Virus record (IMG/VR): IMGVR_UViG_3300025000_000012
Span: 1-62,969 of that record
Length of the DNA: 62,969 nt
DNA from: a virus
Direction: 5' to 3' (one strand)
Under the pieces are notes generated by a model. It saw only the letters and a list, made by a program, of their open reading frames with translations. It did not search any database and had not been told where the DNA came from. The position numbers were made by a program, and so were the translations under genes. Shown here piece after piece: positions 20,875 to 43,107 of the stretch (positions are counted from its first letter, which is position 1; each line of letters starts with the position of its first letter).

Positions 20875-21819
20875 CTATTTCTTGTAACGTTGTCCTATCC
20901 ACCCTTTAGCTTGTAACTGCGCGTCAGGGCACCATTCAATATTACACAGATGACGATTAAAAGTATCCATCGTTGTATCAGTGATATCTTCGTTTTTAAT
21001 TATCCCCATAGCTTCATCATGCACACTTGCCACTAACTCTACTTCAGGCATAAAGTCTCTGATGTTCTGCATTCCCTGTCCCATTACTTCTCTGGCAGAG
21101 CCTTGAGTCGCGTTCTCAGTTATACGGCCGGGGGTTAATCTTAAACGTACCCACTTTTTGGTGTAAGGATCTGTACCCATGTGGGTGACTGTAGGTACTG
21201 GTCCCATGTATTCGTAATCAGGGATAAGAAAATCTTTAACCTGCGGTTTCATGTAGTAGATACATTTACCGGAGGGTAACTTCATCGCTAGCCAGAGGAT
21301 ACCGTTAACCTTGGCTAAGCCGAAGGTAATCCTTTTATATGTACTCTGTTGACCAGAGATGACCGTACGAGCTGCGGCGTTCTTAAGTCCTGACCACAGC
21401 TCTTCGATCAGGAAGTACTTGGCGCGGTAAGACTTAATAGCGATGCTTGACTCATCTAGGGAAACCTCCATGCCAAACTGAACTTTAGCGGTCTCTTTAA
21501 ACTTCTTAGCACCCATTTGGTAACCCGCCCCGAGGACGATTACCTTACCCATTTGGCGTTGTGCCGCACAAACTGGGTCTTCAGCTTTATAGCCTTCATA
21601 AATATCTTTATAAGACTTGTTATACCGAGCAGCAGCCATTGTAATATACTGGTCAATGCCGTTCTTAAAATCGTTGAGAGTCTCGTAGTCTTCTGCCAGC
21701 CACGCAAGGATTCTGTTTTCAATACCCGAGTAGTCTGAGACGATGAGGGAGCAGCCGTTCGGTGCTTTGATCATAGGCCGTATTAAAGCCTTTGCTGTGC
21801 CAATCGGATTTTCAATCAT
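20875..21819 (-). CDS. Family-A DNA polymerase, C-terminal part (palm/fingers, 314 aa)
   Basis: Motif A SDYSGIENRILAWLA, motif B RQMGKVIVLGAGYQMG, motif C VASVHDEAM. ATG overlaps the upstream stop (ATGA) with GGAGG 7 nt upstream. Confidence 0.9.
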   Translation of the reverse strand: MIENPIGTAKALIRPMIKAPNGCSLIVSDYSGIENRILAWLAEDYETLNDFKNGIDQYITMAAARYNKSYKDIYEGYKAEDPVCAAQRQMGKVIVLGAGYQMGAKKFKETAKVQFGMEVSLDESSIAIKSYRAKYFLIEELWSGLKNAAARTVISGQQSTYKRITFGLAKVNGILWLAMKLPSGKCIYYMKPQVKDFLIPDYEYMGPVPTVTHMGTDPYTKKWVRLRLTPGRITENATQGSAREVMGQGMQNIRDFMPEVELVASVHDEAMGIIKNEDITDTTMDTFNRHLCNIEWCPDAQLQAKGWIGQRYKK

Positions 21820-22880
21820 ATTACCGCCTCCAGAAACTCTTGTATGCGCTCTTCAGGATTAGGGACTGATGCTCTAGGTAAGTTATGAACCTGGAATCCT
21901 CGGCCCGCCCATCTACCAGGGCCTGCGCCATGGAACTGTACATTGTCATGTACCCAGTATTGATCACCAACTTTACGTGCTTGAGCTGCAAGCTTTGTGA
22001 ACTTAGCAGTCGAGGATCGTCCAAGCTCTTGCCGCATCTCAAGAACCTCTCGAACATTCTCTGGACAACTAGGATCGTCAAGACCTGCTTGTACAGCAGC
22101 GGCATCAAGAGTATCCATAGGAAATCCGTTTTCACCGCACCATGCTTTAATCTTCTCTAACTGGCCAAGTGTCTTAAACGCGCCACCGCTCTTCTCAGGA
22201 ACACACTCAAGGGCTTTAAGGACATATGTACCCAGATAGTCACGAATAGCTACGATGGCTTTGTAGTCTATGGGCAGCCCGGTTGTATTCATCTCGTACG
22301 TAAGTTCCCAAAGTCTCTGCTCCTTGGGAATAAGAACCTTACGAGGCAGAGTGTAGACAATCTCACGCATAGCCTCGATGTCACGTTTGCAGTACTCATA
22401 AAGCCGGCCGAAGTGTACACCATTAACACCCCAAGGTGTAGGTTGAACCCCTGACTTGGTAGGTACACAGCAGAGCTTTATGAGCTTGAGGCCGTCAGCG
22501 CTCTTAGGCATAGAGATACCAAGAGCTTCACCTGCGTTATGAAGACTAGCAGGTACGCCAAATGTTTGGCACAGCGCCATCGAATCTATAACCTGACCAA
22601 GTGATAGTCGTGGCCAGCACAGCTGCTCGTGGCCGATGAAGTTCCAGATTCTATAGTCAAATGTGGCATTGTGCGCATACACGGGTTGACCAGAGAGTAC
22701 GTGCTCAATTATATCTGGGTGAAGCTCATCTGCAGGAGTGAATACCGACACTGGTTCTTTGTCAAAGGCGTAGCCCATGCAGACGATCTGAGTTGACGGA
22801 TGCGTGGCATAGTTCATGCCACCACGTTTCTTAATATCCACGGCTGAATATGTTTCAAAGTCTACGAAGAGGTCACTCAC
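21816..22880 (-). CDS. Family-A DNA polymerase, N-terminal part (3'-5' exonuclease plus thumb, about 354 aa)
   Basis: ExoI FVDFETYS, ExoII AHNATFDYRIW, ExoIII YCKRDIEAM. Start re-set to GTG 22880 (GGAGGAAG upstream, after the stop of the 22900 gene). Confidence 0.85.
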   Translation of the reverse strand: MSDLFVDFETYSAVDIKKRGGMNYATHPSTQIVCMGYAFDKEPVSVFTPADELHPDIIEHVLSGQPVYAHNATFDYRIWNFIGHEQLCWPRLSLGQVIDSMALCQTFGVPASLHNAGEALGISMPKSADGLKLIKLCCVPTKSGVQPTPWGVNGVHFGRLYEYCKRDIEAMREIVYTLPRKVLIPKEQRLWELTYEMNTTGLPIDYKAIVAIRDYLGTYVLKALECVPEKSGGAFKTLGQLEKIKAWCGENGFPMDTLDAAAVQAGLDDPSCPENVREVLEMRQELGRSSTAKFTKLAAQARKVGDQYWVHDNVQFHGAGPGRWAGRGFQVHNLPRASVPNPEERIQEFLEAVI

Positions 22881-22899
22881 TGTTTCTTCCTCCAGCGGT

Positions 22900-23160
22900 C
22901 TAAATATTCCATGAAGCAATTTCTGTTGGCTTTTCACCTTGAACAACAATAGTCTCAAACATCAGCGCATCACAGATATACTGCATGCATGTTCCAATAG
23001 TTTTGAATTCTACTACTGGATATGGCTTCTGTCTTTCATCCATAGCTTTATATTTTCCAGGGCCCCCGCGTATTCTAAAGGCGCGGCCTTCTCTAATATA
23101 GATGTCCCAATGCCCGGGATTACGATGAATGACTTCGAAACTTAGGGGTGTAGTATTCAT
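22900..23160 (-). CDS. Hypothetical protein (86 aa)
   Basis: ATGA overlap with the upstream gene. No motif recognised. Confidence 0.6.
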   Translation of the reverse strand: MNTTPLSFEVIHRNPGHWDIYIREGRAFRIRGGPGKYKAMDERQKPYPVVEFKTIGTCMQYICDALMFETIVVQGEKPTEIASWNI

Positions 23161-26717: not shown

Positions 26718-27260
26718 TTACAGGAGCTCGTCGTCTCCGTCAGGATCTGTATCGTCTTCAGGAACATCTGCAACGACATTGGGCTCGGGCAACTTGGCAG
26801 CAGCGGCCTCGTTACGCTTGATCTTGATGCGCAGCAGGGTAGCATTAGCGTCGGCCTCTTCCTTGAGCTCGACAAGCTCTTCGTCATCCGGGTCTTCAGC
26901 GATATCAGCATTAACCTGGTCAACTTTGGCCTGAGCCTTGGCGTACGCAGCACGCTGGGTCTTGAGAGTCTTGGCAAGTGCGTCGGCCTGCTCTTGCGGA
27001 GTCTTGGCGCTGGTAGAAGCTTTGGCTTTGCGATTGGCAAGGACAACTTCCTGTTGGGCATTATACTCGTCCTCAGTACAAAAGCGGAGCTTCTTGTTCT
27101 CATCAGCGACGATGAAGTGGCCCATCCACCGCAGATACGTCATCTGAGATGAAACACTCGCATCTTTGACTTCCAGCTTGGCAGCGATTTCGGCTTTGGT
27201 ATACTCACCAGTCTCGATCAGTTCCTTAACTTGTTCACGGCGGTTAACTTTCTCACTCAT
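26718..27260 (-). CDS. Winged-HTH DNA-binding protein with a C-terminal coiled-coil/acidic region (180 aa)
   Basis: EQVKELIETGEYTKAEIAAKLEVKDASVSSQMTYLRWMG is paralogous to EQVVNLIRTNGRISIKDIGEAIGISERNVSSQLSYLRKDG in 40512..40808. First gene after the 27.3-kb promoter. Confidence 0.7.
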   Translation of the reverse strand: MSEKVNRREQVKELIETGEYTKAEIAAKLEVKDASVSSQMTYLRWMGHFIVADENKKLRFCTEDEYNAQQEVVLANRKAKASTSAKTPQEQADALAKTLKTQRAAYAKAQAKVDQVNADIAEDPDDEELVELKEEADANATLLRIKIKRNEAAAAKLPEPNVVADVPEDDTDPDGDDELL

Positions 27261-34141: not shown

Positions 34142-34413
34142 TAGTCTTCCTCCAAGGGACTATAAAGATTAGCATATGGGTTAACGCCAGGTGCATCACT
34201 GTTTTGATCAGACATGCAGCGATTAGCCCTGACATCGTAAGATGGTGGAAACACGGTAGGTACACGGTTCGTGATGTTATCCACCGTCTCAACAGGACCG
34301 ATAGGTTCACCACACCAAGCGCATCCGTGGTACTTATATGTACGGGATACACCTGGCGCTATTACATGCGACCGAAGATACTTAGTTACTGAAGCCGTAT
34401 TGCAGTCACACAT
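34141..34413 (-). CDS. Cys-rich small protein (90 aa)
   Basis: MCDC...HGCAWCGEP. Overlaps the end of the CXX-repeat gene by 8 nt. Confidence 0.55.
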   Translation of the reverse strand: MCDCNTASVTKYLRSHVIAPGVSRTYKYHGCAWCGEPIGPVETVDNITNRVPTVFPPSYDVRANRCMSDQNSDAPGVNPYANLYSPLEED

Positions 34414-35077
34414 AGAGTTTCTCCTGAACGATTAAGTATTCAATGGTGCTGATATAAATCATATATTGATCAAAGAATTTGGTGCCTAAGTGTCTCTGGG
34501 TAACAGCTTCACGAAACTGATTCAAATCACCTCGGAAGCATCCGCAAACTACTTGAACAAGACCCTTTGACCAGTATGTTGTGACGTCTGCATTTCGGCT
34601 TCCGATAGATTGTTTAAGATACCTTGCGGGGTTCTCTTTGAAGTCTGTGCAGTCCGTGCAGTCCGTGCAGTCCGTGCAGTACCTGCAGTTCGTGCAGTCT
34701 GTGCAGTCCGTGCAGTACCTGCAGTTCGTGCAGTTCTCGCAGTCCGTGCAGTCCATGCAGTACCTGCAGTTCGTGCAGTTCTCGCAGTCCGTGCAGTCCA
34801 TGCAGTCCATGCAGTCCATGCAGTTCGTGCAGTTCGTGCAGTTCATGCAGTCCGTGCAGTTCATGCAGTCCGTGCAGTCCGTGCAGTCCGTGCAGTCCGT
34901 GCAGTTCGTGCAGTTCTCGCAGTCCGTGCAGTCCATGCAGTTCGTGCAGTTCGTGCAGTCCGTGCAGTCCGTGCAGTTCATGTTATCCATCTTACAGGCT
35001 TGTTTATCTGCGAGCTCTTGAGACTTATAACTTACGCCAGTATTGCCTTTTTCTGATTTAGCGGATTCATATCTCAT
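34406..35077 (-). CDS. Protein with 37 consecutive Cys-X-X triplets plus a non-repetitive C-terminal domain (223 aa)
   Basis: [24 protein letters not shown]...[15 protein letters not shown], then [54 protein letters not shown]-type coupling to the upstream gene. Confidence 0.75.
34643..34975. repeat. 333-bp tract of 37 tandem 9-bp units (gtgcagtcc-like)
   Basis: Units gca-gt[ct]-c[ga]t and similar. Higher-order 45-bp repeats ([15 protein letters not shown] twice). The tract lacks stops in several frames, which creates spurious plus-strand ORFs. Confidence 0.95.
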
Positions 35078-36288: not shown

Positions 36289-38592
36289 TTATTGAACCTG
36301 AGTTGAGGGTTGATGAGTGTCAAACATAAGAGCGCCGACCGGAGTCTGAGTACCTCTGGATGGGGGTACCCAGTAGAACGTACGTGATCTAGCATGTGCG
36401 CCCTTCTCAGGCGGAGGAGTATGCGGCAGTTGTCCGAGCCACGCTAGGAATGTCTGCTTGAACAGACGCTGTGATAGTGAGTTGCCACCTGATTTACGTG
36501 TCTCACCACCCAGCCCAATAAGCGCGCGTACATCACGTAATGTAAGCTTAGTCCATTGGTCAATAGGCGCAGTGGTGTCAAAGAAATCATCTAAGTCATC
36601 GGCTACCGCTTCATCGGCCATGAGTCTTGCTCGCGCGTTGATGTAGTCACGGTCTTGGACGGCTTGAGGATAACGTGTCTCTTCAGTTAGTTGAGAGAAC
36701 CACCACGGCTCACCCGTGACATAGAGATGATGGACCTGAGCCCATAACTGGTCAAGATCAATGTTATGCTTGAAGTTTAGCGAGGCTGTGTGTATAAGTA
36801 GCACGCGTCTATTTTGAGAGTCAGAGAGAAAAGATTGTAGGTTTGTAGACCCAATGAAAGAGGTACGTCTGGTCATCTCCACTTGATGCCGCCCGTAAGG
36901 TAGAACCTTCTTTTCAGTCGTTGCGTCAAGGAATTCCTTGAACTCGGAGAATGTGTTATGGGTGAACAGAGTGTCTATCTCATTGATATTACAGATTAGA
37001 GAGTTGCTGAGCTCCATGGTCAGCTTAGTGCTCTCAGTTTTAAACTTGCCGAGCTTGAGGTCCTTACTCGCGTCACAGTAGTGAATGAGGGCCTTAGGAA
37101 AGAGAGACTGTACCCACTTAGTCTTGCCTATGCCTTGCGAGCCTGTAAAGATAAGGACTTGGTTAAGCATGACTGACTGGTCCTTAGGATCGTGGCACGC
37201 ACCAGCTACGACTTGAATCAGCCATTTTTGTAAAAAGACTTTATATGATGACAAAAAGCGAGTATGAGATGGCATAACCTCGATAGTATTCATGAGAGCC
37301 GTTATGCGGTCTTGCCCATCCCAGGTAAGATTATTAAAGTAATCCTTGATAGGATTTATGAAATTTGTGTTACCAACAGCACCAAGATAATTAAATATGC
37401 GTCGGTCAGTAAAGCTACCAGAGATGGTATTCATCTTTAAGAAGTCTGAGCCAATGAGACTCGTGATTTGATCAAGAGATGCGTTAGAAGTTGGCATACC
37501 CCAGTCTGCTTGCTTAGATGGAGGTATGATTACATCCATCTGCATAAGTAACTCATTGACGACAGGTTTGATACCCGTAAACCTAAGATAAGTGTGAAAA
37601 TTATCAATAGTACCCTTTAACCGACCTTTCTTATCAACGTCAGGATAAGACGGGAATTGAGCATCAGCGAGCTTGATGATAGTCGCGATGGTTATAGGGT
37701 TGTCAGTATTCTTATCATTGAATGAGTGCCACACAGCATCTGCTGAGTCAGGATCGTACTTATTCCCTGATCGAGACCATTCTACCCAGAGAGAGAAGCC
37801 TTTAAGGGACCCGGAGTACTCATGATGAAGTGCTTGACCAATGATTAACCAAGGTGTGCGTGCTTCATCTGTGCAGTTGAGATCAAGAACCGCGGACTCA
37901 CCTTTTGAGACGCGGTCAAAGATATCGTCAGTTAAACATTGTACTGGAAGCCGGTTAAGCAGACTCTTAACATAAGGAATAGCGAGAGGCTCAGTCGACT
38001 TAGAAGACTTGGTAGGTGGAGAGGCTTCAGAGTCTTGCTGCTCTGTTTGGTCAACGTGACGTTGTGTAGTAAATAAGCCTTCAAGTATGCTGAGTAAGGT
38101 TGTAGACTCAATGACTCGGACCGGCAGAGGATTGTCATCCGCGATATTGTTGGTCACTGTAACAAAGCCAGTCGATATAAAGAGATCACGTTTATTGGTA
38201 GTGTTACGCTTACCCTTGCCATATTCAGCGATGATAGTCGCTTTGTCAGTCACTTCGACAACTACATGACAACCCATGCCGCTCGGTGAAACCTCAGTGT
38301 ATGAATCAAGGGACTTGACCAGGGAGAGATTTTCAGGAGTAAATTCGTCGACGTCAATACAGACAAATGGATGATCTTCGGTGTATGCAAAACCTAGGCC
38401 GAGAGTCTTACCGACTCGGAATCGTACATCTTCAAAGGGCAAGAGTTTAGTCGGCCAGTCCTTACCCAGGATAGGTTTCTTTAAAGTTTTATTAGGTATC
38501 TTCGGATGTGGTTGAGGAGACCACAATAGCCAGAAGGGTGCAGATTGTAAAGAAAGCGGAATAGTGCTAGGATCTACTGTGAGGTGTGCCAT
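36289..38592 (-). CDS. Bifunctional prim-pol / VirE(D5)-type P-loop primase-helicase (767 aa)
   Basis: Prim-pol motifs FVCIDVDEF and EVSPSGMGCHVVV. Walker A FTGSQGIGKTKW. Largest early gene. Confidence 0.85.
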   Translation of the reverse strand: MAHLTVDPSTIPLSLQSAPFWLLWSPQPHPKIPNKTLKKPILGKDWPTKLLPFEDVRFRVGKTLGLGFAYTEDHPFVCIDVDEFTPENLSLVKSLDSYTEVSPSGMGCHVVVEVTDKATIIAEYGKGKRNTTNKRDLFISTGFVTVTNNIADDNPLPVRVIESTTLLSILEGLFTTQRHVDQTEQQDSEASPPTKSSKSTEPLAIPYVKSLLNRLPVQCLTDDIFDRVSKGESAVLDLNCTDEARTPWLIIGQALHHEYSGSLKGFSLWVEWSRSGNKYDPDSADAVWHSFNDKNTDNPITIATIIKLADAQFPSYPDVDKKGRLKGTIDNFHTYLRFTGIKPVVNELLMQMDVIIPPSKQADWGMPTSNASLDQITSLIGSDFLKMNTISGSFTDRRIFNYLGAVGNTNFINPIKDYFNNLTWDGQDRITALMNTIEVMPSHTRFLSSYKVFLQKWLIQVVAGACHDPKDQSVMLNQVLIFTGSQGIGKTKWVQSLFPKALIHYCDASKDLKLGKFKTESTKLTMELSNSLICNINEIDTLFTHNTFSEFKEFLDATTEKKVLPYGRHQVEMTRRTSFIGSTNLQSFLSDSQNRRVLLIHTASLNFKHNIDLDQLWAQVHHLYVTGEPWWFSQLTEETRYPQAVQDRDYINARARLMADEAVADDLDDFFDTTAPIDQWTKLTLRDVRALIGLGGETRKSGGNSLSQRLFKQTFLAWLGQLPHTPPPEKGAHARSRTFYWVPPSRGTQTPVGALMFDTHQPSTQVQ

Positions 38593-38700: not shown

Positions 38701-38754
38701 GTCTTGATTTGACGACTTGGTTCATGATAGTACTTTAAGCCGCCAAATCAAGAC
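38701..38754 (-). promoter_or_regulatory. Perfect 11-bp inverted repeat in the primase 5' leader
   Basis: GTCTTGATTTG (38701-38711) and CAAATCAAGAC (38744-38754) with a 32-nt spacer. Lies between the 38.8-kb promoter and the primase ATG. Confidence 0.6.
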
Positions 38755-38811
38755 CGCCTCCTACAGCGCAGGGTATTCACTCACAGTGAGGATCACTCAC
38801 TTTCAATCGAT

Positions 38812-38840
38812 ATTATAGCATGGAGAGTCTCTTTTGTAAA
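38812..38840 (-). promoter_or_regulatory. sigma70-type promoter TTTACA-N17-TATAAT
   Basis: -35 at 38840-38835, -10 at 38817-38812. GTGAG/CTCAC hairpin (38786-38800) at about +5, with a third CACTCAC copy allowing an alternative pairing. Confidence 0.7.
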
Positions 38841-38905
38841 CGATAATAATTAAGATGAATCGAAAAAGTATACCTATATAGAATAAATTAATAAGAGAAG
38901 CGGAG

Positions 38906-38914
38906 TGTGGATAA
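38906..38914 (-). promoter_or_regulatory. Perfect DnaA-box 9-mer (TTATCCACA)
   Basis: The plus strand reads tgtggataa. It is embedded in the exact 11-mer TGGATAAGCAT, which recurs at 39314-39324. Confidence 0.5.
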
Positions 38915-39007
38915 GCATAATACAAGGCTAAGGTAGGCGGAACGTGAGAGTAAGTTGAGACTGAGAGTATGCACGAATTAGGTATATTGGGCCAAAACAA
39001 ATCGCTC

Positions 39008-39117
39008 TAGGCCTAAGTATATAATATAATTAAGAAAAAATGGAAAAAGCGAGTTCGCTTTATATTCACGGGCTGATTTGTAGGGCCTAAGTATATGAAA
39101 TAATTAGATAAATTTGG
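39008..39117. repeat. Two ~36-bp imperfect direct repeats (TAGGCCTAAGTATATnAnATAATTA...)
   Basis: Copies at 39008-39043 and 39081-39117, period 73 bp. Partial third copy ATAGGCCCTGAATAT at 39268-39282. Confidence 0.75.
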
Positions 39118-39311
39118 ACGCGTCGAATAAGCTGCTTTTTTTCCACTTAGTTTATACTTTTTTTAGAAAAAAAATATGTTTTATGTTGTATTTTATCTGC
39201 TATTCAACATATTTTAAAATATACGTAATAATATTATATACTTATAAAAGATGAATAGTATGCTCGAATAGGCCCTGAATATCCTACGAACATAACATAT
39301 CGTAAATACTC

Positions 39312-39320
39312 TCTGGATAA
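39312..39320 (-). promoter_or_regulatory. DnaA-box-like 9-mer (TTATCCAGA, 8/9)
   Basis: The plus strand reads tctggataa. Same orientation as the box at 38906. Further 7/9 matches at 39651-39659 and 40100-40108. Confidence 0.4.
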
Positions 39321-39470
39321 GCATTTTTATTCAACTATTCAACCGATAAACTCTTATACTAGTAAAATCAGATACTTAGACTAAGCGAATATCAAATTGA
39401 TTCGACCAAGCTCTTCAAATGACGGAACGGTGTAGCTCGATTTTAAGATACATTCTGGGTTTTCGTTGGG

Positions 39471-39600
39471 CCCCGCAAGATTTGCTGCTTAGCTGACACA
39501 ATTGGATTACCGAGTCTGCAAGTATCTTAGTAAGCGATGTCGAGAGGCAAGATTTGCGAGGTCCTTGAGTCAGTGATGCCGAGAGGCAAGATTTGCGGGG
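39471..39600. repeat. Three copies of GCAAGATTTGC, two of them inside 26-bp direct repeats
   Basis: Exact 11-mers at 39475, 39547 and 39586. GATGyCGAGAGGCAAGATTTGCGrGG at 39536-39561 and 39575-39600. Flanks CCCCGCAA (39471) and TTGCGGGG (39593) are complementary. Confidence 0.85.
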
Positions 39601-39665
39601 ATGATGTGCTCCTGCGCAGGATCCTCAACTCCAGTAATATTAATTTAATTCCTGGATAAAAAAGA

Positions 39666-39694
39666 ATTTACTTTTGCGTTAAAATATATTATAA
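39666..39694 (+). promoter_or_regulatory. sigma70-type promoter TTTACT-N17-TATAAT
   Basis: -35 at 39666-39671, -10 at 39689-39694. AAGCAGAA/TTCTGCTT hairpin (39707-39727) at about +6. Confidence 0.7.
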
Positions 39695-39756
39695 TATATT
39701 ATATAAAAAGCAGAAACTTCTTCTGCTTAATTAAAACTTAGTACTGGAGAAACACT

Positions 39757-39966
39757 ATGAATATACCTACCTGGTTATTAGCAGAAGTAGATAAACTACG
39801 TGGACAATTTCCAGATATTAATTATACTGATGCAGTACCACTAGAACAAAGCGATATTGAGTTATTTGTAATTCACGTGCATAACGACTTTAAAGAGTAC
39901 ATCATTATACTACGAAACAATACCAACTATGACACTTGGATAGATGTTAAAATTGTCGAAATGTAA
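39757..39966 (+). CDS. Hypothetical early protein (69 aa)
   Basis: GGAG 8 nt before the ATG. Only rightward ORF in the control region, driven by the 39.7-kb promoter. Confidence 0.6.
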   Translation: MNIPTWLLAEVDKLRGQFPDINYTDAVPLEQSDIELFVIHVHNDFKEYIIILRNNTNYDTWIDVKIVEM

Positions 39967-40022
39967 TGTAATGTTACATCATGTAACATCATGTAACATG
40001 ATGTAGCATGATGTAGCATGAT
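39961..40022. repeat. Six tandem 10-bp units, each a near-palindrome ATGT(A/T)ACAT
   Basis: ATGTAATGTA|ATGTTACATC|ATGTAACATC|ATGTAACATG|ATGTAGCATG|ATGTAGCATG|AT. Begins at the stop codon of 39757..39966. Confidence 0.9.
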
Positions 40023-40052
40023 TATAAAGTAAAGCTCTACAGCATCTGGTGT

Positions 40053-40426
40053 AATAATGCTAGGTGCTGTGCTTTATTCATCGGACCCAGTATGACTCTA
40101 CTGGATAATGGAGCTGAGCTCTCCAGCAGCACTATCACGTTGATACTGGAACTTTGGTGTGTTCGCGAAGTTAGTGTGTCACCGCGGTAATCGACACAGC
40201 TAAGCTCTTAGACAAGACTTGCGGGGACTATCATCACCACGTTGCTAGGTTGGGATAATATAATGCTGGGCTCTTCATTAGCACTATCATCCAGTGTGAT
40301 CATACTGGGTGTCATGATTAAGCCGAGCCCTCCAAGAACACTATCATCCAGTATAGTTATTTAATTAAATAGCAATGTAGTTAAATAACTAAATACCTTT
40401 GCAATATTAATAATCACTATCATCAG
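40053..40426. repeat. Iteron-like array: five CACTATCA(T/C)C boxes plus CCAGT-N8-ACTGG palindromes
   Basis: Boxes at 40130, 40226, 40282, 40339 and 40415 (the two central ones are the exact 14-mer CACTATCATCCAGT). ccagtatgactctactgg and ccagtgtgatcatactgg. ATAATGCTrGG...TTCAT leader occurs twice. Confidence 0.8.
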
Positions 40427-40511
40427 CGTATTTCACCAAATGATTAAATACCCAGCAAAAGAACAAGCCGCAGATAATCATTCTTATCTGCGGCTCATTC
40501 CTATCTAAGAA

Positions 40512-40808
40512 TCATTCCTCTTTTTCCTCATAAATCCGGCCCTTTGAATCCTTTCCAAACTTCAAACCATCCTTACGAAGATATGACAACTGACTCGACA
40601 CATTGCGCTCACTAATGCCGATCGCTTCGCCAATATCTTTGATGCTAATCCGACCATTTGTCCTTATCAGATTGACGACTTGCTCTTTCCGACCTTCACC
40701 TTTCTCGCCGACTTTCTTGACCAGCTCTTCGCGCTCCGCCTTCAAAGCCGCAATCTCTTCAAGCAGCAGTTCCATTTCCGATTTTGCACTCTCGTTTTCT
40801 TTCTTCAT
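40512..40808 (-). CDS. Winged-HTH DNA-binding protein with an N-terminal coiled coil (98 aa), candidate regulator
   Basis: ELLLEEIAALKAEREELVKK, then GRISIKDIGEAIGISERNVSSQLSYLRKDG. Paralogous to the N-terminus of 26718..27260. Confidence 0.7.
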   Translation of the reverse strand: MKKENESAKSEMELLLEEIAALKAEREELVKKVGEKGEGRKEQVVNLIRTNGRISIKDIGEAIGISERNVSSQLSYLRKDGLKFGKDSKGRIYEEKEE

Positions 40809-40942: not shown

Positions 40943-41075
40943 GTGGTCGCTACGCTCCCATTTAATATCCGTTCACTTCGTTCACTCTATAACATATATT
41001 CATCGCTACGCTCTTCATTCTAGTGGTCGCGCTGCTCCCATTAATAAATCGTTCACGCTGTTCACTTAATAACAT
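40943..41075. repeat. Two 53-bp imperfect direct repeats, period 80 bp
   Basis: GTGGTCGCTACGCTCCCATTTAATATCCGTTCACTTCGTTCACTCTATAACAT (40943-40995) versus GTGGTCGCGCTGCTCCCATTAATAAATCGTTCACGCTGTTCACTTAATAACAT (41023-41075). TCGCTrCGCTC and GTTCAC sub-repeats. Confidence 0.85.
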
Positions 41076-41228
41076 GAGATCCTGTCGGATCAATGACTTG
41101 CAGTCGCTGCGCTCCTGTCTGCAGGACCATAAAAATCAGGCAATTTGCAGACTAGGCGGGTGTACCCTGTCCAAATACTGTACAGCACTTCCTCTTTCCT
41201 ATAGCTCCGGAAAAAATTAGAATCCCTT

Positions 41229-41333
41229 AGACCTCTCAATACACTTTGTGTACAGCTTCTCTGAGTCATTACTCTCGTGAAATCTGGAATCCCTTAACTC
41301 GCCTGTACACATTTAGAAAGGGCTACACTGAAT
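41229..41333 (+). repeat. Two degenerate direct repeats: GAATCCCTTA followed by the TACAC(T/A)TT motif
   Basis: agaatcccttagacctctcaatacactttgtg (41229-) and ggaatcccttaactcgcctgtacacatttagaaaggg (41297-41333). Confidence 0.7.
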
Positions 41334-41665: not shown

Positions 41666-42163
41666 ATGCTGGATTTAGAGCTCATGCGGTTGCAGTACGA
41701 AATCCTCAATAAGTCGATCGCTCAGATAGCGTCGGACGAGGAGACTAGTGCCACGCTGCTCCAGCGAGAGGCCACCGAGCTCGGCTGGAAACAATTCTGG
41801 CCAGACCCGCCTCAAAAGCCGTATGAAGAGACCGATGACGTCGATGAGATTATGTCTCTCGAGTCAGAACAGTATATCGACCGTGCCCGGAAACGCTTGA
41901 AGGTCTACTCCCTGGCCAAGGAAGTCCTGATGGCCCAGCGGTATCTTGCCCTTGAGTGCAAAATCGTAAAGACCGCTAGTGATATTCTGGATAACTTTGA
42001 GAGTAATGGGCTCGGCAGCTCACAGGCTATTAAGCAACTGAGTGCCCTGTTCAAAGACATGACTGCTGGGTCGAATCTTGCGAACTTAGCCTCAATGACG
42101 CTAGGCACTGACGATAATGGCTTACCGACAGTCACGATCAGGGACCTCTCTGGTCATAGATAA
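41666..42163 (+). CDS. Hypothetical protein, possible small terminase / DNA-binding subunit (165 aa)
   Basis: First gene of the rightward block, two genes upstream of TerL. The assignment is positional only. Confidence 0.45.
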   Translation: MLDLELMRLQYEILNKSIAQIASDEETSATLLQREATELGWKQFWPDPPQKPYEETDDVDEIMSLESEQYIDRARKRLKVYSLAKEVLMAQRYLALECKIVKTASDILDNFESNGLGSSQAIKQLSALFKDMTAGSNLANLASMTLGTDDNGLPTVTIRDLSGHR

Positions 42164-42252: not shown

Positions 42253-43107
42253 ATGAAAACAGTAGAAGAGAAACAAGCGAACAACACAGCAAGCAGATTA
42301 TATTATGCTGAAATGAGTGCTGAGAAAAAGGCACGACGAATGGAGGCGCAGAGAATTTATCGGCAGAACCCGGTAAATCGAGAAAAAGCAAGAGAAGCCT
42401 GTAGAAAGGCTAGACTAGACCCCGAGAAGCGTGCCAAATACAACAATTGTACTAAGGCTTATAATACCAAGACTAGGCTTGACCCAGAAGTTCGGACACA
42501 ACAAAATGAAGCTAGCCGAATAGCTCGAGCTCTTGATAGGTTGGACCCGGAAAAGTGTGAAAAGTTTAATGAAGCGAGTAGATTGAGTACAGCGAAAGCC
42601 CGGTTAACCCCACAAGGTAAACATAAATCCAGTATGTCTAGTATCAAAAGTCGGTACTGCCTTTCTGAAGAGGATTTTCGGGACCTGATGGATGCACAAA
42701 AGGGGTGCTGCGCGATTTGTGGAACCGATTTTGGTGAGCTGTTTAGAAGAGCCTCAGTTGATCATTGTCATATAACTGGAAAAATAAGAAAACTGTTATG
42801 TAATAAGTGTAATACCTCAGTCGGACAAATAGAGTTTCTTAATCCTGAACACGCGATAGAGTACTTAGAAAAACCGGATACCCAGATACTGTATAATACA
42901 AGTTCTGCGCAGCAATATAAAAAGACACACGACGCGCATTGTGAATTATGCGGGCGTACTGAAAATTTAGTCATAGATCATAATCATTCTACTGGAAACA
43001 TACGAGGTATTCTGTGTAGTACTTGTAATAACGCACTTGGCGCGGTAGAGTCCCACATGTTTTCTGCATACGTTCAGTACGCACGAGGCGGCAATTGTGC
43101 GGTTTGA
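42253..43107 (+). CDS. Endonuclease VII (HNH-superfamily) protein with two nuclease cores (284 aa)
   Basis: CCAICG...VDHCHITGKIRKLLCNKCNTSVG and CELCG...IDHNHSTGNIRGILCSTCNNALG. N-terminal ~21-aa repeats RLDPEKRAKYN / RLDPEVRTQQNEASR / RLDPEKCEKFNEASR. Confidence 0.85.
   Translation: MKTVEEKQANNTASRLYYAEMSAEKKARRMEAQRIYRQNPVNREKAREACRKARLDPEKRAKYNNCTKAYNTKTRLDPEVRTQQNEASRIARALDRLDPEKCEKFNEASRLSTAKARLTPQGKHKSSMSSIKSRYCLSEEDFRDLMDAQKGCCAICGTDFGELFRRASVDHCHITGKIRKLLCNKCNTSVGQIEFLNPEHAIEYLEKPDTQILYNTSSAQQYKKTHDAHCELCGRTENLVIDHNHSTGNIRGILCSTCNNALGAVESHMFSAYVQYARGGNCAV

Follow-up and report, generated by a model that had tools for sequence, protein, structure and literature searches.

Short oligomers with a strand preference, such as Chi, FtsK-orienting polar sequences (KOPS) and nick motifs, show how DNA ends, replication and packaging are organized, and are known from few cultured phage groups. 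Here, we report a polar 8-mer, RTGATAGT, in an uncultured phage lineage, together with a compact, hairpin-flanked, inverted cluster of five copies (the array) at the point where the polarity flips, an arrangement not previously described. The DNA analysed (the window) is the 62,969-nucleotide (nt) stretch of IMG/VR record IMGVR_UViG_3300025000_000012. It holds one complete phage genome, which is circularly closed and 62,842 bp long and of which the first 127 bp are repeated at the window end; the contig ends carry no information on the physical ends of virion or replicating DNA. The lineage is roughly 60 kb in genome size, podovirus-like and derived from sediment and groundwater metagenomes. 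No close DNA relatives were found among cultured phages, and TerL and portal are ~49% and ~29% identical to their best cultured matches.

The array sits in a mostly non-coding 3-kb control region between two blocks of genes. The leftward replication block encodes a PriCT-2/VapE primase-helicase (36289–38592; 767 aa, of the archaeo-eukaryotic primase or AEP type), a PD-(D/E)XK DUF2800 nuclease, PolA, an ATP-dependent ligase and a SNF2 helicase. The rightward packaging/structural block comprises a terS-like gene at 41666 (165 aa), an Endonuclease VII gene, TerL and portal.

Origin iterons are sets of three or more direct repeats of ~17–22 bp with regular, helically phased spacing. Partition centromeres (parS, parC or tubC) are repeats beside the gene for a centromere-binding protein and an NTPase (ParA, ParM or TubZ). 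Winged-helix proteins include FtsK gamma, which reads KOPS, and RTP. Chi outnumbers every other octamer in phages LLS (E. coli), MD8 (Pseudomonas) and P1; it occurs about once per 1.9 kb, is skewed 20:3 or 32:0 in orientation, gathers toward one end of the genome, and is thought to let RecBCD promote recombination for circularization and concatemer formation (Zheng et al., 2025; PMC12315714). Phage tf carries 14–17 copies of the 9-mer TACTRTGMC, all on one strand whatever the direction of transcription, denser in one half of the genome and kept in relatives (PMC3517423).

The motif described here resembles Chi in the Chi-rich phages in being the top 8-mer, in its frequency of about one site per 1.3–2 kb, its near-total orientation bias, its location in open reading frames (ORFs), its clustering toward one map position and its G/T-rich sequence. 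It differs in matching no known Chi and in belonging to a phage that has nuclease and single-stranded DNA (ssDNA)-binding genes; a tight inverted cluster, hairpins, a 10-mer consensus and accessory motifs are present, and the wrong orientation is depleted in the late genes. With the nick motifs of tf/LUZ24-like phages, T5 and phiKMV it shares a length of 7–9 nt, location on one strand, a higher density in one half of the genome and conservation. The one-strand rule holds here for the dispersed copies, and the array lies on the other strand. Inverted clusters or hairpin-flanked copies do not occur in the nick-motif phages, which are unrelated to the present one (portal ~29%), and any nicks at the motif here are hypothetical.

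The likeness to iterons and single-strand initiation (ssi) sites (lambda ori, oriR of P1, ssiA and ssiB of RSF1010) lies in short repeated boxes within non-coding control DNA that has an AT-rich stretch and the genes for a primase-helicase and a small winged helix-turn-helix (wHTH) protein in its vicinity; for ssi sites it extends to a hairpin with a conserved, single-strand-like tail. The boxes are, however, shorter and irregular, and their core is spread over tens of kb with strict polarity. An iteron set, one of the options in the initial annotation of the locus, does not agree with a core of 9–10 bp, an irregular and unconserved spacing and 17 further copies of the core genome-wide. In KOPS/dif and in Ter, as here, two polar site groups converge on one locus. 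No translocase or dif-like site was identified in this phage; ~20 sites at kb spacing on one arm are unlike Ter, and the orientation logic of a fork trap does not suit forks leaving the control region. A partition/centromere-like site had also been suggested. The small wHTH gene adjoins the array; a scan of 26 different ORFs (28 queries, a partial ORF set) with Pfam or PHROGs revealed no partition NTPase, and on this set the suggestion is not supported.

Strand polarity and the inverted array

RTGATAGT, the reverse complement of the box core, occurs 17 times on the plus strand, and its only minus-strand copies are the five boxes of the array. The most over-represented non-tandem octamer of the genome is GTGATAGT, with a strand ratio of 11:1. 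GRTGATAGT was counted ten times on the plus strand, where Markov models of order 1–4 predict 0.6–1.0. The core ACTATCA is present on the plus strand at five places only in 62.8 kb, all inside 290 bp, and the 10-mer CACTATCATC with at most one mismatch gave 13 matches versus 4.2 ± 1.9 in shuffled sequences. The motif strand is G/T-rich and without C.

The replication block accounts for 13 of the 17 copies, and most sites are inside ORFs. Their spacing is ~0.5 kb near 38.7 kb and widens to 2–3 kb and then to 5–10 kb, the density dropping with distance from the polarity switch and control region. Non-coding copies extend the core 5'-RTGATAGT-3' to GATGATAGTG; array boxes and dispersed copies share 7–8 nt only.

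The five boxes are clustered, oppositely oriented copies of a genome-wide, strand-polar signal. Read 5' to 3' on the G/T-rich strand, every copy points to 38732–40130 in the window, and the pattern recurs in four independent relatives. Because the first plus-strand copy ends at 38731 and box 1 begins at 40130, the polarity switch is placed between 38732 and 40130. It is probable that the motif is a strand-polar signal on DNA which is read by DNA-processing machinery and of which the array is the inversion point. The initial annotation had described a local cis array next to a wHTH gene: the cluster proved genuine and conserved, but its core is not local, being a strand-specific 8-mer of the whole genome.

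The boxes themselves were found where they had been annotated, with start-to-start spacings of 96, 56, 57 and 76 bp. CACTATCATC is exact in boxes 3–5, has one mismatch in box 2 (GACTATCATC) and two in box 1 (CACTATCACG), and the 14-mer CACTATCATCCAGT is identical in the two central copies, boxes 3 and 4. All are asymmetric single copies. Both annotated CCAGT-N8-ACTGG dyads and the leader ATAATGCTRGG (at 40054 and 40260) were recovered, and a 36-nt unit is present in three copies (40108, 40260 and 40317; 67–75% identity). The accessory motif fused to box 2 reads CAAGACTTGCGGGG on the plus strand (40213–40226), and the same composite occurs in the relatives L127 (4462) and L129 (1277). Another, read as GGAGAGCTCAGC in the window (Table 1) and as GGAGAGCCCGG in L146, L137, L162 and L138, lies 4–5 nt downstream of boxes; CCCGCAAGATYTGC and CCAGCTG or CCAGTGG also recur beside boxes. 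The end of box 5 is 87 bp from the end of the wHTH ORF and separated from it by the terminator of that gene; this proximity and the distance of 1.2 kb to the terS-like gene agree with the initial annotation.

Positions 40034–40360 form a GC-richer island (45–50% versus 22–33% in the flanks) in AT-rich, non-coding surroundings. Long-range self-complementarity was seen between 40074–40115 and 40280–40321, and folding of the array region, relative to shuffled sequence, scored z = -3.8 on one strand and z = -3.5 on the other. Non-coding boxes are preceded by a hairpin that ends 0–3 nt before the box, with a mean minimum free energy of -9.1 versus -3.7 kcal/mol at random non-coding positions (P = 3e-6). 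The hairpin sequences vary among phages, and neither strand is clearly favoured (13 versus 9, P = 0.06). No box overlaps a predicted -35 or -10 element; the boxes are placed between a terminator and the next promoter. No tRNA genes were found in the array region with ARAGORN, and a tRNA-like reading of the repeat unit, which has the look of a T-arm and acceptor stem, was dropped on this result. Rfam gave no match at E <= 10 except for spurious microRNA matches on a 10-mer palindrome, which arise from the palindromic array past ORF69 (Table 1). The coordinates of the features are collected in Table 1.

Table 1. Positions of the polar motif, the array and adjoining features in the window.
Feature	Position	Strand	Description
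Dispersed RTGATAGT	3853, 14016, 22601, 24740, 26070, 28693, 29667	+	From genome-wide motif count
Dispersed RTGATAGT (continued)	31631, 33707, 35252, 35848, 36471, 37676, 38231	+	From genome-wide motif count
RTGATAGT, two further copies	52004, 61808	+	From genome-wide motif count
CATGATAGT	38723–38731	+	First plus-strand copy on replication-gene side; 132 nt upstream of primase start
Degenerate box, opposite orientation	39586–39608	+	GATGATGTG at 39600–39608, fused to GCAAGATTTGC-GGG
Switch-interval segment	39667–40033	+	Sigma-70-like promoter 39667–39695, leader hairpin, ORF69 39757–39966, palindromic repeats
Palindromic array of 10-nt repeats, ATGTAACATG	39961–40025		~5 copies; near-perfect long hairpin just past ORF69
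Dyad CCAGT-N8-ACTGG	40087–40104	.	CCAGTatgactctACTGG
Accessory motif GGAGAGCTCAGC	40113–40124	-	4–5 nt past box 1; more copies at 40265–40276 and 40322–40333
Box 1	40130–40139	-	cGTGATAGTG on minus strand; plus-strand core ACTATCAC 40131–40138; closest box to polarity switch
Box 2	40226–40235 (composite 40213–40235)	-	GATGATAGTC on minus strand, fused to accessory motif CCCCGCAAGTCTTG
Box 3	40282–40291	-	GATGATAGTG on minus strand; abuts dyad 40291–40308
Dyad CCAGT-N8-ACTGG	40291–40308	.	CCAGTgtgatcatACTGG; minus-strand hairpin ends directly at box 3
Box 4	40339–40348	-	GATGATAGTG on minus strand; preceded there by AT-rich hairpin 40354–40391
Box 5	40415–40424	-	GATGATAGTG on minus strand; first after wHTH terminator
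wHTH gene terminator hairpin	40461–40500	-	GCCGCAGATAA...TTATCTGCGGC, then T-rich tract on minus strand
98-aa wHTH protein	40512–40808	-	Long N-terminal helix and winged helix-turn-helix

Conservation in relatives

Syntenic loci in relatives were reached through wHTH homologues, early regions through DUF2800 homologues (L156, L157 and L158) and late regions through portal homologues. On the early gene-sense strand the ratio of ACTATCA to TGATAGT was 11:0 in L156, 11:0 in L157 and 5:0 in L158; the late regions have one TGATAGT each and no ACTATCA on their gene-sense strand. Early sequence was pooled to 82 kb from the window (24 kb, 14 sites) and four relatives, L162 included. In this pool ACTATCA was found 42 times on the gene-sense strand against 11.4 expected from a third-order Markov model, and TGATAGT 0 times against 2.4. 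The corresponding counts in 91 kb of pooled late sequence were 0 against 6.2 (P = 0.002) for ACTATCA and 9 against 5.8 for TGATAGT. The 35-kb late region holds five copies and is not enriched. As the nine late copies are TGATAGT on the late sense strand, the polarity follows the DNA strand and not the direction of transcription.

Inverted non-coding clusters of five (window), three (L159) and five (L162) copies occupy the same map position and are the only places with the reversed orientation. Sites of the early regions are spaced more evenly than random ones (P = 0.012, 0.0008 and 0.022). Codon usage suggests that some sites are under selection at the nucleotide level: the 'LSP' site of DUF2800 is CTA TCA CC in four of four genomes, and shared-codon sites with identical synonymous choices are found in three relatives for the PolA gene and in L127 and L129 for the primase gene.

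Conservation of the boxes in related genomes, on which the initial annotation had staked its claim, was found. GATGATAGT stands on the wHTH-sense strand in three to five copies after the wHTH terminator in L127/L159, L129 and L162, whose wHTH proteins are 77, 61 and 58% identical to that of the window (L162 has two wHTH paralogues). The last box is always GTGATAGTG in these loci, and the position of box 5 is kept in L127 (4373), L129 (1110) and L162 (6687). The sequence around the boxes has diverged, and the spacing is irregular and not conserved (115/48/208/137 in L162, 138/29/175 in L129). Over the wider family, the 9-mer box is present at 15 of 28 non-redundant wHTH loci (26 of the 28 from a metagenome scan) at a density of 3.2 per 10 kb versus ~0.15 expected. 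Most of the 15 are short metagenome contigs with a wHTH identity of 41–57%; there, boxes often form inverted pairs that lie upstream of the wHTH promoter by 85–130 nt, and a further copy follows the gene. All of the wHTH loci belong to one phage lineage. Other contigs with an identical wHTH are 100% identical over the array region in a check of microdiversity.

More distant phage relatives, among them portal relatives in metagenome-assembled genomes (MAGs) of Desulfobacterota and a Desulfospira prophage, are without the motif. No wHTH homologue was found in cultured phages, and a scan of GTDB genomes for the wHTH gene was without match. Scanning IMG/VR for the 14-mer CACTATCATCCAGT returned single chance matches only, and for paired boxes only coding Asp-Asp-Ser repeats with no wHTH. 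The ACTATCA polarity seen in a few loci from the 14-mer scan was rejected as codon context (gAC TAT CA) without the rule at the eighth position, and alternative polar motifs in the wHTH-bearing L121 and L122 as ribosome-binding-site and start-codon contexts.

Possible readings of the signal

Tentatively, we favour Chi-like polar sites that converge on a DNA end or replication start at 38.7–40.1 kb, one side of which is guarded by the array. Polarity, conservation and clustering are observed; the identity of the reader, a DNA end in the interval and a Chi-like outcome are inferred. A helicase-nuclease, either the host RecBCD/AddAB or a phage enzyme, would enter at a DNA end or rolling-circle tail arising within 38.7–40.1 kb and read the sites on the 3'-ending strand. 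On the replication side, graded and evenly spaced sites every 0.5–3 kb would ensure that any end there, such as those left by successive headful cuts, soon meets an active site. At such a site the nuclease would switch from degradation to recombination, and the genome could become circular or concatemeric. Five sites in 300 bp would serve this purpose on the other side. The hairpins, accessory motifs and wHTH gene may be parts of the machinery that forms the end or origin.

Preference is given to this reading because it alone assigns a natural role to the inverted cluster, the two sides of an end needing opposite orientations. The motif strand is moreover G/T-rich, like known Chi sequences, and the graded, even series suits ends at successive positions on one side, as in a headful series. 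The sequence statistics are those of a Chi-type signal: the top non-tandem octamer at 11:1, a ratio of 17:0 outside the array and one of 42:0 in the pooled early regions. If this is a true host Chi, the phage reveals the Chi of an uncharacterized bacterial group and the flip point locates the genome ends. In general, the flip point is a precise prediction of where ends, nicks or replication starts map.

Several points weigh against Chi-like sites. The host Chi and the DNA end in the interval are both postulated, and the interval contains a variable small-ORF cassette and not a conserved cos-like sequence. The phage encodes a PD-(D/E)XK nuclease, and relatives additionally encode an Enc34-type ssDNA-binding protein; among lambdoid phages, the Chi-rich genomes are those without a Rec module (PMC12315714). 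A Chi model needs no hairpin before the non-coding boxes, no 10-mer extension and no accessory motifs, and does not predict the depletion of ACTATCA on the late sense strand. The close inverted pairs in distant relatives fit a protein-binding or processing site at least as well. Finally, the motif is missing in distant relatives including the Desulfospira prophage and thus tracks the phage lineage as much as the host.

Rather unlikely is a polar-signal system encoded by the phage, a guidance code owned by the virus lineage that would resemble Chi or KOPS without being the Chi of the host. At the modules of hairpin plus GATGATAGTG in the control region, a DNA end or replication start would be created or capped by a phage protein, and the bare 8-mers on one strand would steer or restrain that machinery as it moves through the genome. 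Candidates for the protein are the 98-aa wHTH, possibly with the PD-(D/E)XK nuclease, the SNF2 helicase or the primase-helicase. A true phage-encoded reader would be a new kind of viral genome-guidance system. The readings considered here are not all exclusive: the wHTH could read the hairpin–box modules and another enzyme the bare 8-mers.

The one-strand statistics match those of the tf 9-mer (PMC3517423), of which the variant TACTATGAC equals CACTATCAC at seven of nine positions. The motif could mark localized single-strand interruptions: a phage nickase would cut just one strand of virion DNA, at ACTATCAY or its complement, and the array would be a special opposite-strand cluster close to the end that leads in packaging or injection. 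If nicks in both strands were harmful, the wrong orientation would be expected to be depleted, and the phage has genes for an ATP-dependent ligase and, beside the terminase, an Endonuclease VII/HNH protein. We consider this improbable. The inverted cluster is without parallel in known nick-motif phages, five opposite-strand nicks in 300 bp are without precedent, and the nick sites of tf and T5 have no hairpins or accessory motifs. Moreover, the nickase is only hypothetical, and ligase and HNH genes are common in phages.

Binding by the 98-aa wHTH protein, with the boxes as an operator, iteron-like or looping array for the adjacent promoters or origin, comes close to the initial annotation and appears equally improbable. 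Boxes stand beside wHTH homologues family-wide, often on both sides and as inverted pairs upstream of the promoter, and the last box is 30–110 nt upstream of a strong promoter in L127, L129 and L162. In L121, three palindromic TATCATC-N4-GATGATA sites lie beside the wHTH gene. The recognition helix RNVSSQLSYLRKDG is invariant in 20 homologues, and the long N-terminal helix could mediate oligomerization and bridging; the wHTH protein is a candidate reader of the boxes and may bind them. A structure search with the wHTH model returned generic ArsR/MarR-type folds only, however, and in a single phage lineage the co-occurrence of boxes and gene may be shared ancestry. Binding leaves the 42:0 polarity, the even spacing and the synonymous-codon conservation in ORFs unexplained. 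Neither iterons nor dimer operators resemble these single asymmetric 9–10-mers, the spacing of which is irregular and not conserved. The operator bank envisaged in the initial annotation finds no box on the predicted promoter hexamers; the boxes lie between terminator and next promoter.

For forks that diverge from the switch interval, all sites fall on the template of the lagging strand, at an even spacing of 1–3 kb that is on the scale of Okazaki fragments. The AEP-type primase-helicase might read 5'-ACTATCAY-3' on a single-stranded template and start its primer as 5'-RTGATAGT, with a purine; dispersed copies would prime lagging strands, and the hairpin-flanked array would supply single-strand initiation signals at an origin. 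The hairpin-plus-box layout resembles ssi signals, the primase gene and AT-rich stretch adjoin the switch, and the AEP prim-pol of NrS-1 has an 8-nt recognition sequence (PMC8718748). Priming is nevertheless very unlikely. The 35-kb late region is not enriched, which leaves lagging-strand priming there unexplained; a density gradient is not expected, the hairpins have no template-strand preference, and close pairs of forward and reverse boxes in relatives would prime convergently.

As doubtful as priming is a signal in RNA, with ACUAUCAY as a mark that would destine early transcripts for processing, decay or the loading of a factor and that late ones would avoid. The array would then be a five-tag sponge, if read rightward from the promoter at 39667, or, if read leftward, a multi-seed antisense RNA that pairs with the tags. 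Enrichment of ACTATCA on the early sense strand (42 versus 11.4) and its absence from the late one (0 versus 6.2) are in line with this, as are the position of the boxes between hairpins, the ORF69 promoter that reads into the array in the window, and a region that folds better than shuffled sequence. Yet no Rfam family or tRNA was found. In L127, L129 and L162 the array has no bracketing promoter and terminator but lies between a terminator and an outward-firing promoter; neither an Rfam match nor a promoter and terminator of its own thus marks it as a structured non-coding RNA. Array boxes and dispersed copies have only the 7–8 nt in common, site accessibility equals that of composition-matched control words, and hairpin stability is without strand preference.

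Four other candidates were rejected: a T7- or N4-type phage promoter (CACTAT like CACTATAG), as there is no RNA polymerase among the large ORFs and the dispersed sites are mostly mid-gene; a sigma-70 -10-like pause element, as most copies end in C (TATCAC) and lack the critical T; a replication fork trap, the orientation logic of which would block the main fork; and avoidance of Type III restriction sites, which accounts for the orientation bias and not for the enrichment.

Control region and neighbouring genes

In each phage the switch interval holds a variable cassette, in which a small ORF is accompanied by a strong sigma-70-like promoter and by a terminator. The ORFs differ among phages (69, 141 or 111 aa, or a second wHTH in L162), which suggests that the cassette is a swappable 'moron' slot. 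The ORF69 cassette is bounded by an inverted TTTACT(TT) repeat (39667–39672 and 40028–40033) and is inverted relative to those of L127 (4690–5150) and L129 (1500–1918). The degenerate box to its left has a counterpart, ACTATCATC-CCC-GCAAATCTTGC, directly past a terminator in L127 (5201 and 5539) and L129 (1958). GCAAGATTTGC occurs in three copies within 39475–39596, flanked by runs of G or C; the two others are at 39475 and 39547.

Between the boxes and the primase gene, 39100–39260 is an extremely AT-rich stretch (14–25% GC). Similar stretches with a CTGATTTTATT-like motif and (TA)n runs occur in L127 (5870–6000), L129 (2290–2420) and L162 (5100–5400). They are a candidate unwinding element or origin.

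The initial annotation had further considered the array as a pac recognition region. It is separated from the terS-like gene by 1.2 kb, in which the wHTH gene lies, and a better candidate is the separate repeat set at 40947–41114, between the wHTH promoter and the terS-like gene and directly upstream of the latter. This set comprises three copies of TCGCTACGCTC and three of CGTTCAC, and is kept in L159 (7130–7410), L162 (7595–7735) and L161 (1–60); it is a putative pac/cos or terS-binding site. The independent contig L161 starts inside these repeats. Further repeats upstream of the terS-like gene are GAATCCCTTA, present twice at 41220–41296 of the window, and, within L159 (7500–7750) and L160 (160–310), ~100-nt tandem units in L159 and units containing the palindrome TACACTTTGTGTA.

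At 1–130 of L160, the end of contig Ga0206662_1000137, a fragment like the TerL C-terminus (KFSHPHDALQYLCMW) is encoded upstream of the terS-like gene, perhaps as a remnant or duplicate. The two-domain Endonuclease VII/HNH protein is encoded at 42253–43107, between the terS-like gene and TerL. Its position is empty in L159, and in L160 and L161 an Endonuclease VII gene is placed after portal; it is probably a mobile nuclease gene.

In L163, from a MAG binned as Bacteroidetes, about four ~70-nt tandem units (1880–2200) replace the boxes upstream of the wHTH promoter; at the locus edge, a hairpin is followed by GTGAT, which may begin a box array. A second, distant wHTH paralogue was located in the early region of the window at ~27102–27260 on the minus strand from tblastx matches with L143, L144 and L163.

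PolA is split in the window into adjacent ORFs of 380 and 314 aa (20875–22958, overlapping at 21816–21819), and is a single gene of 659–668 aa in L156, L157 and L158. Also in the early region, 37 tandem copies of the 9-nt unit AGTCCGTGC (34642–34977, 85% matches) lie inside a 223-aa ORF (34406–35077, minus strand), which therefore encodes a tripeptide-repeat protein; the top octamers of the genome stem from these repeats.

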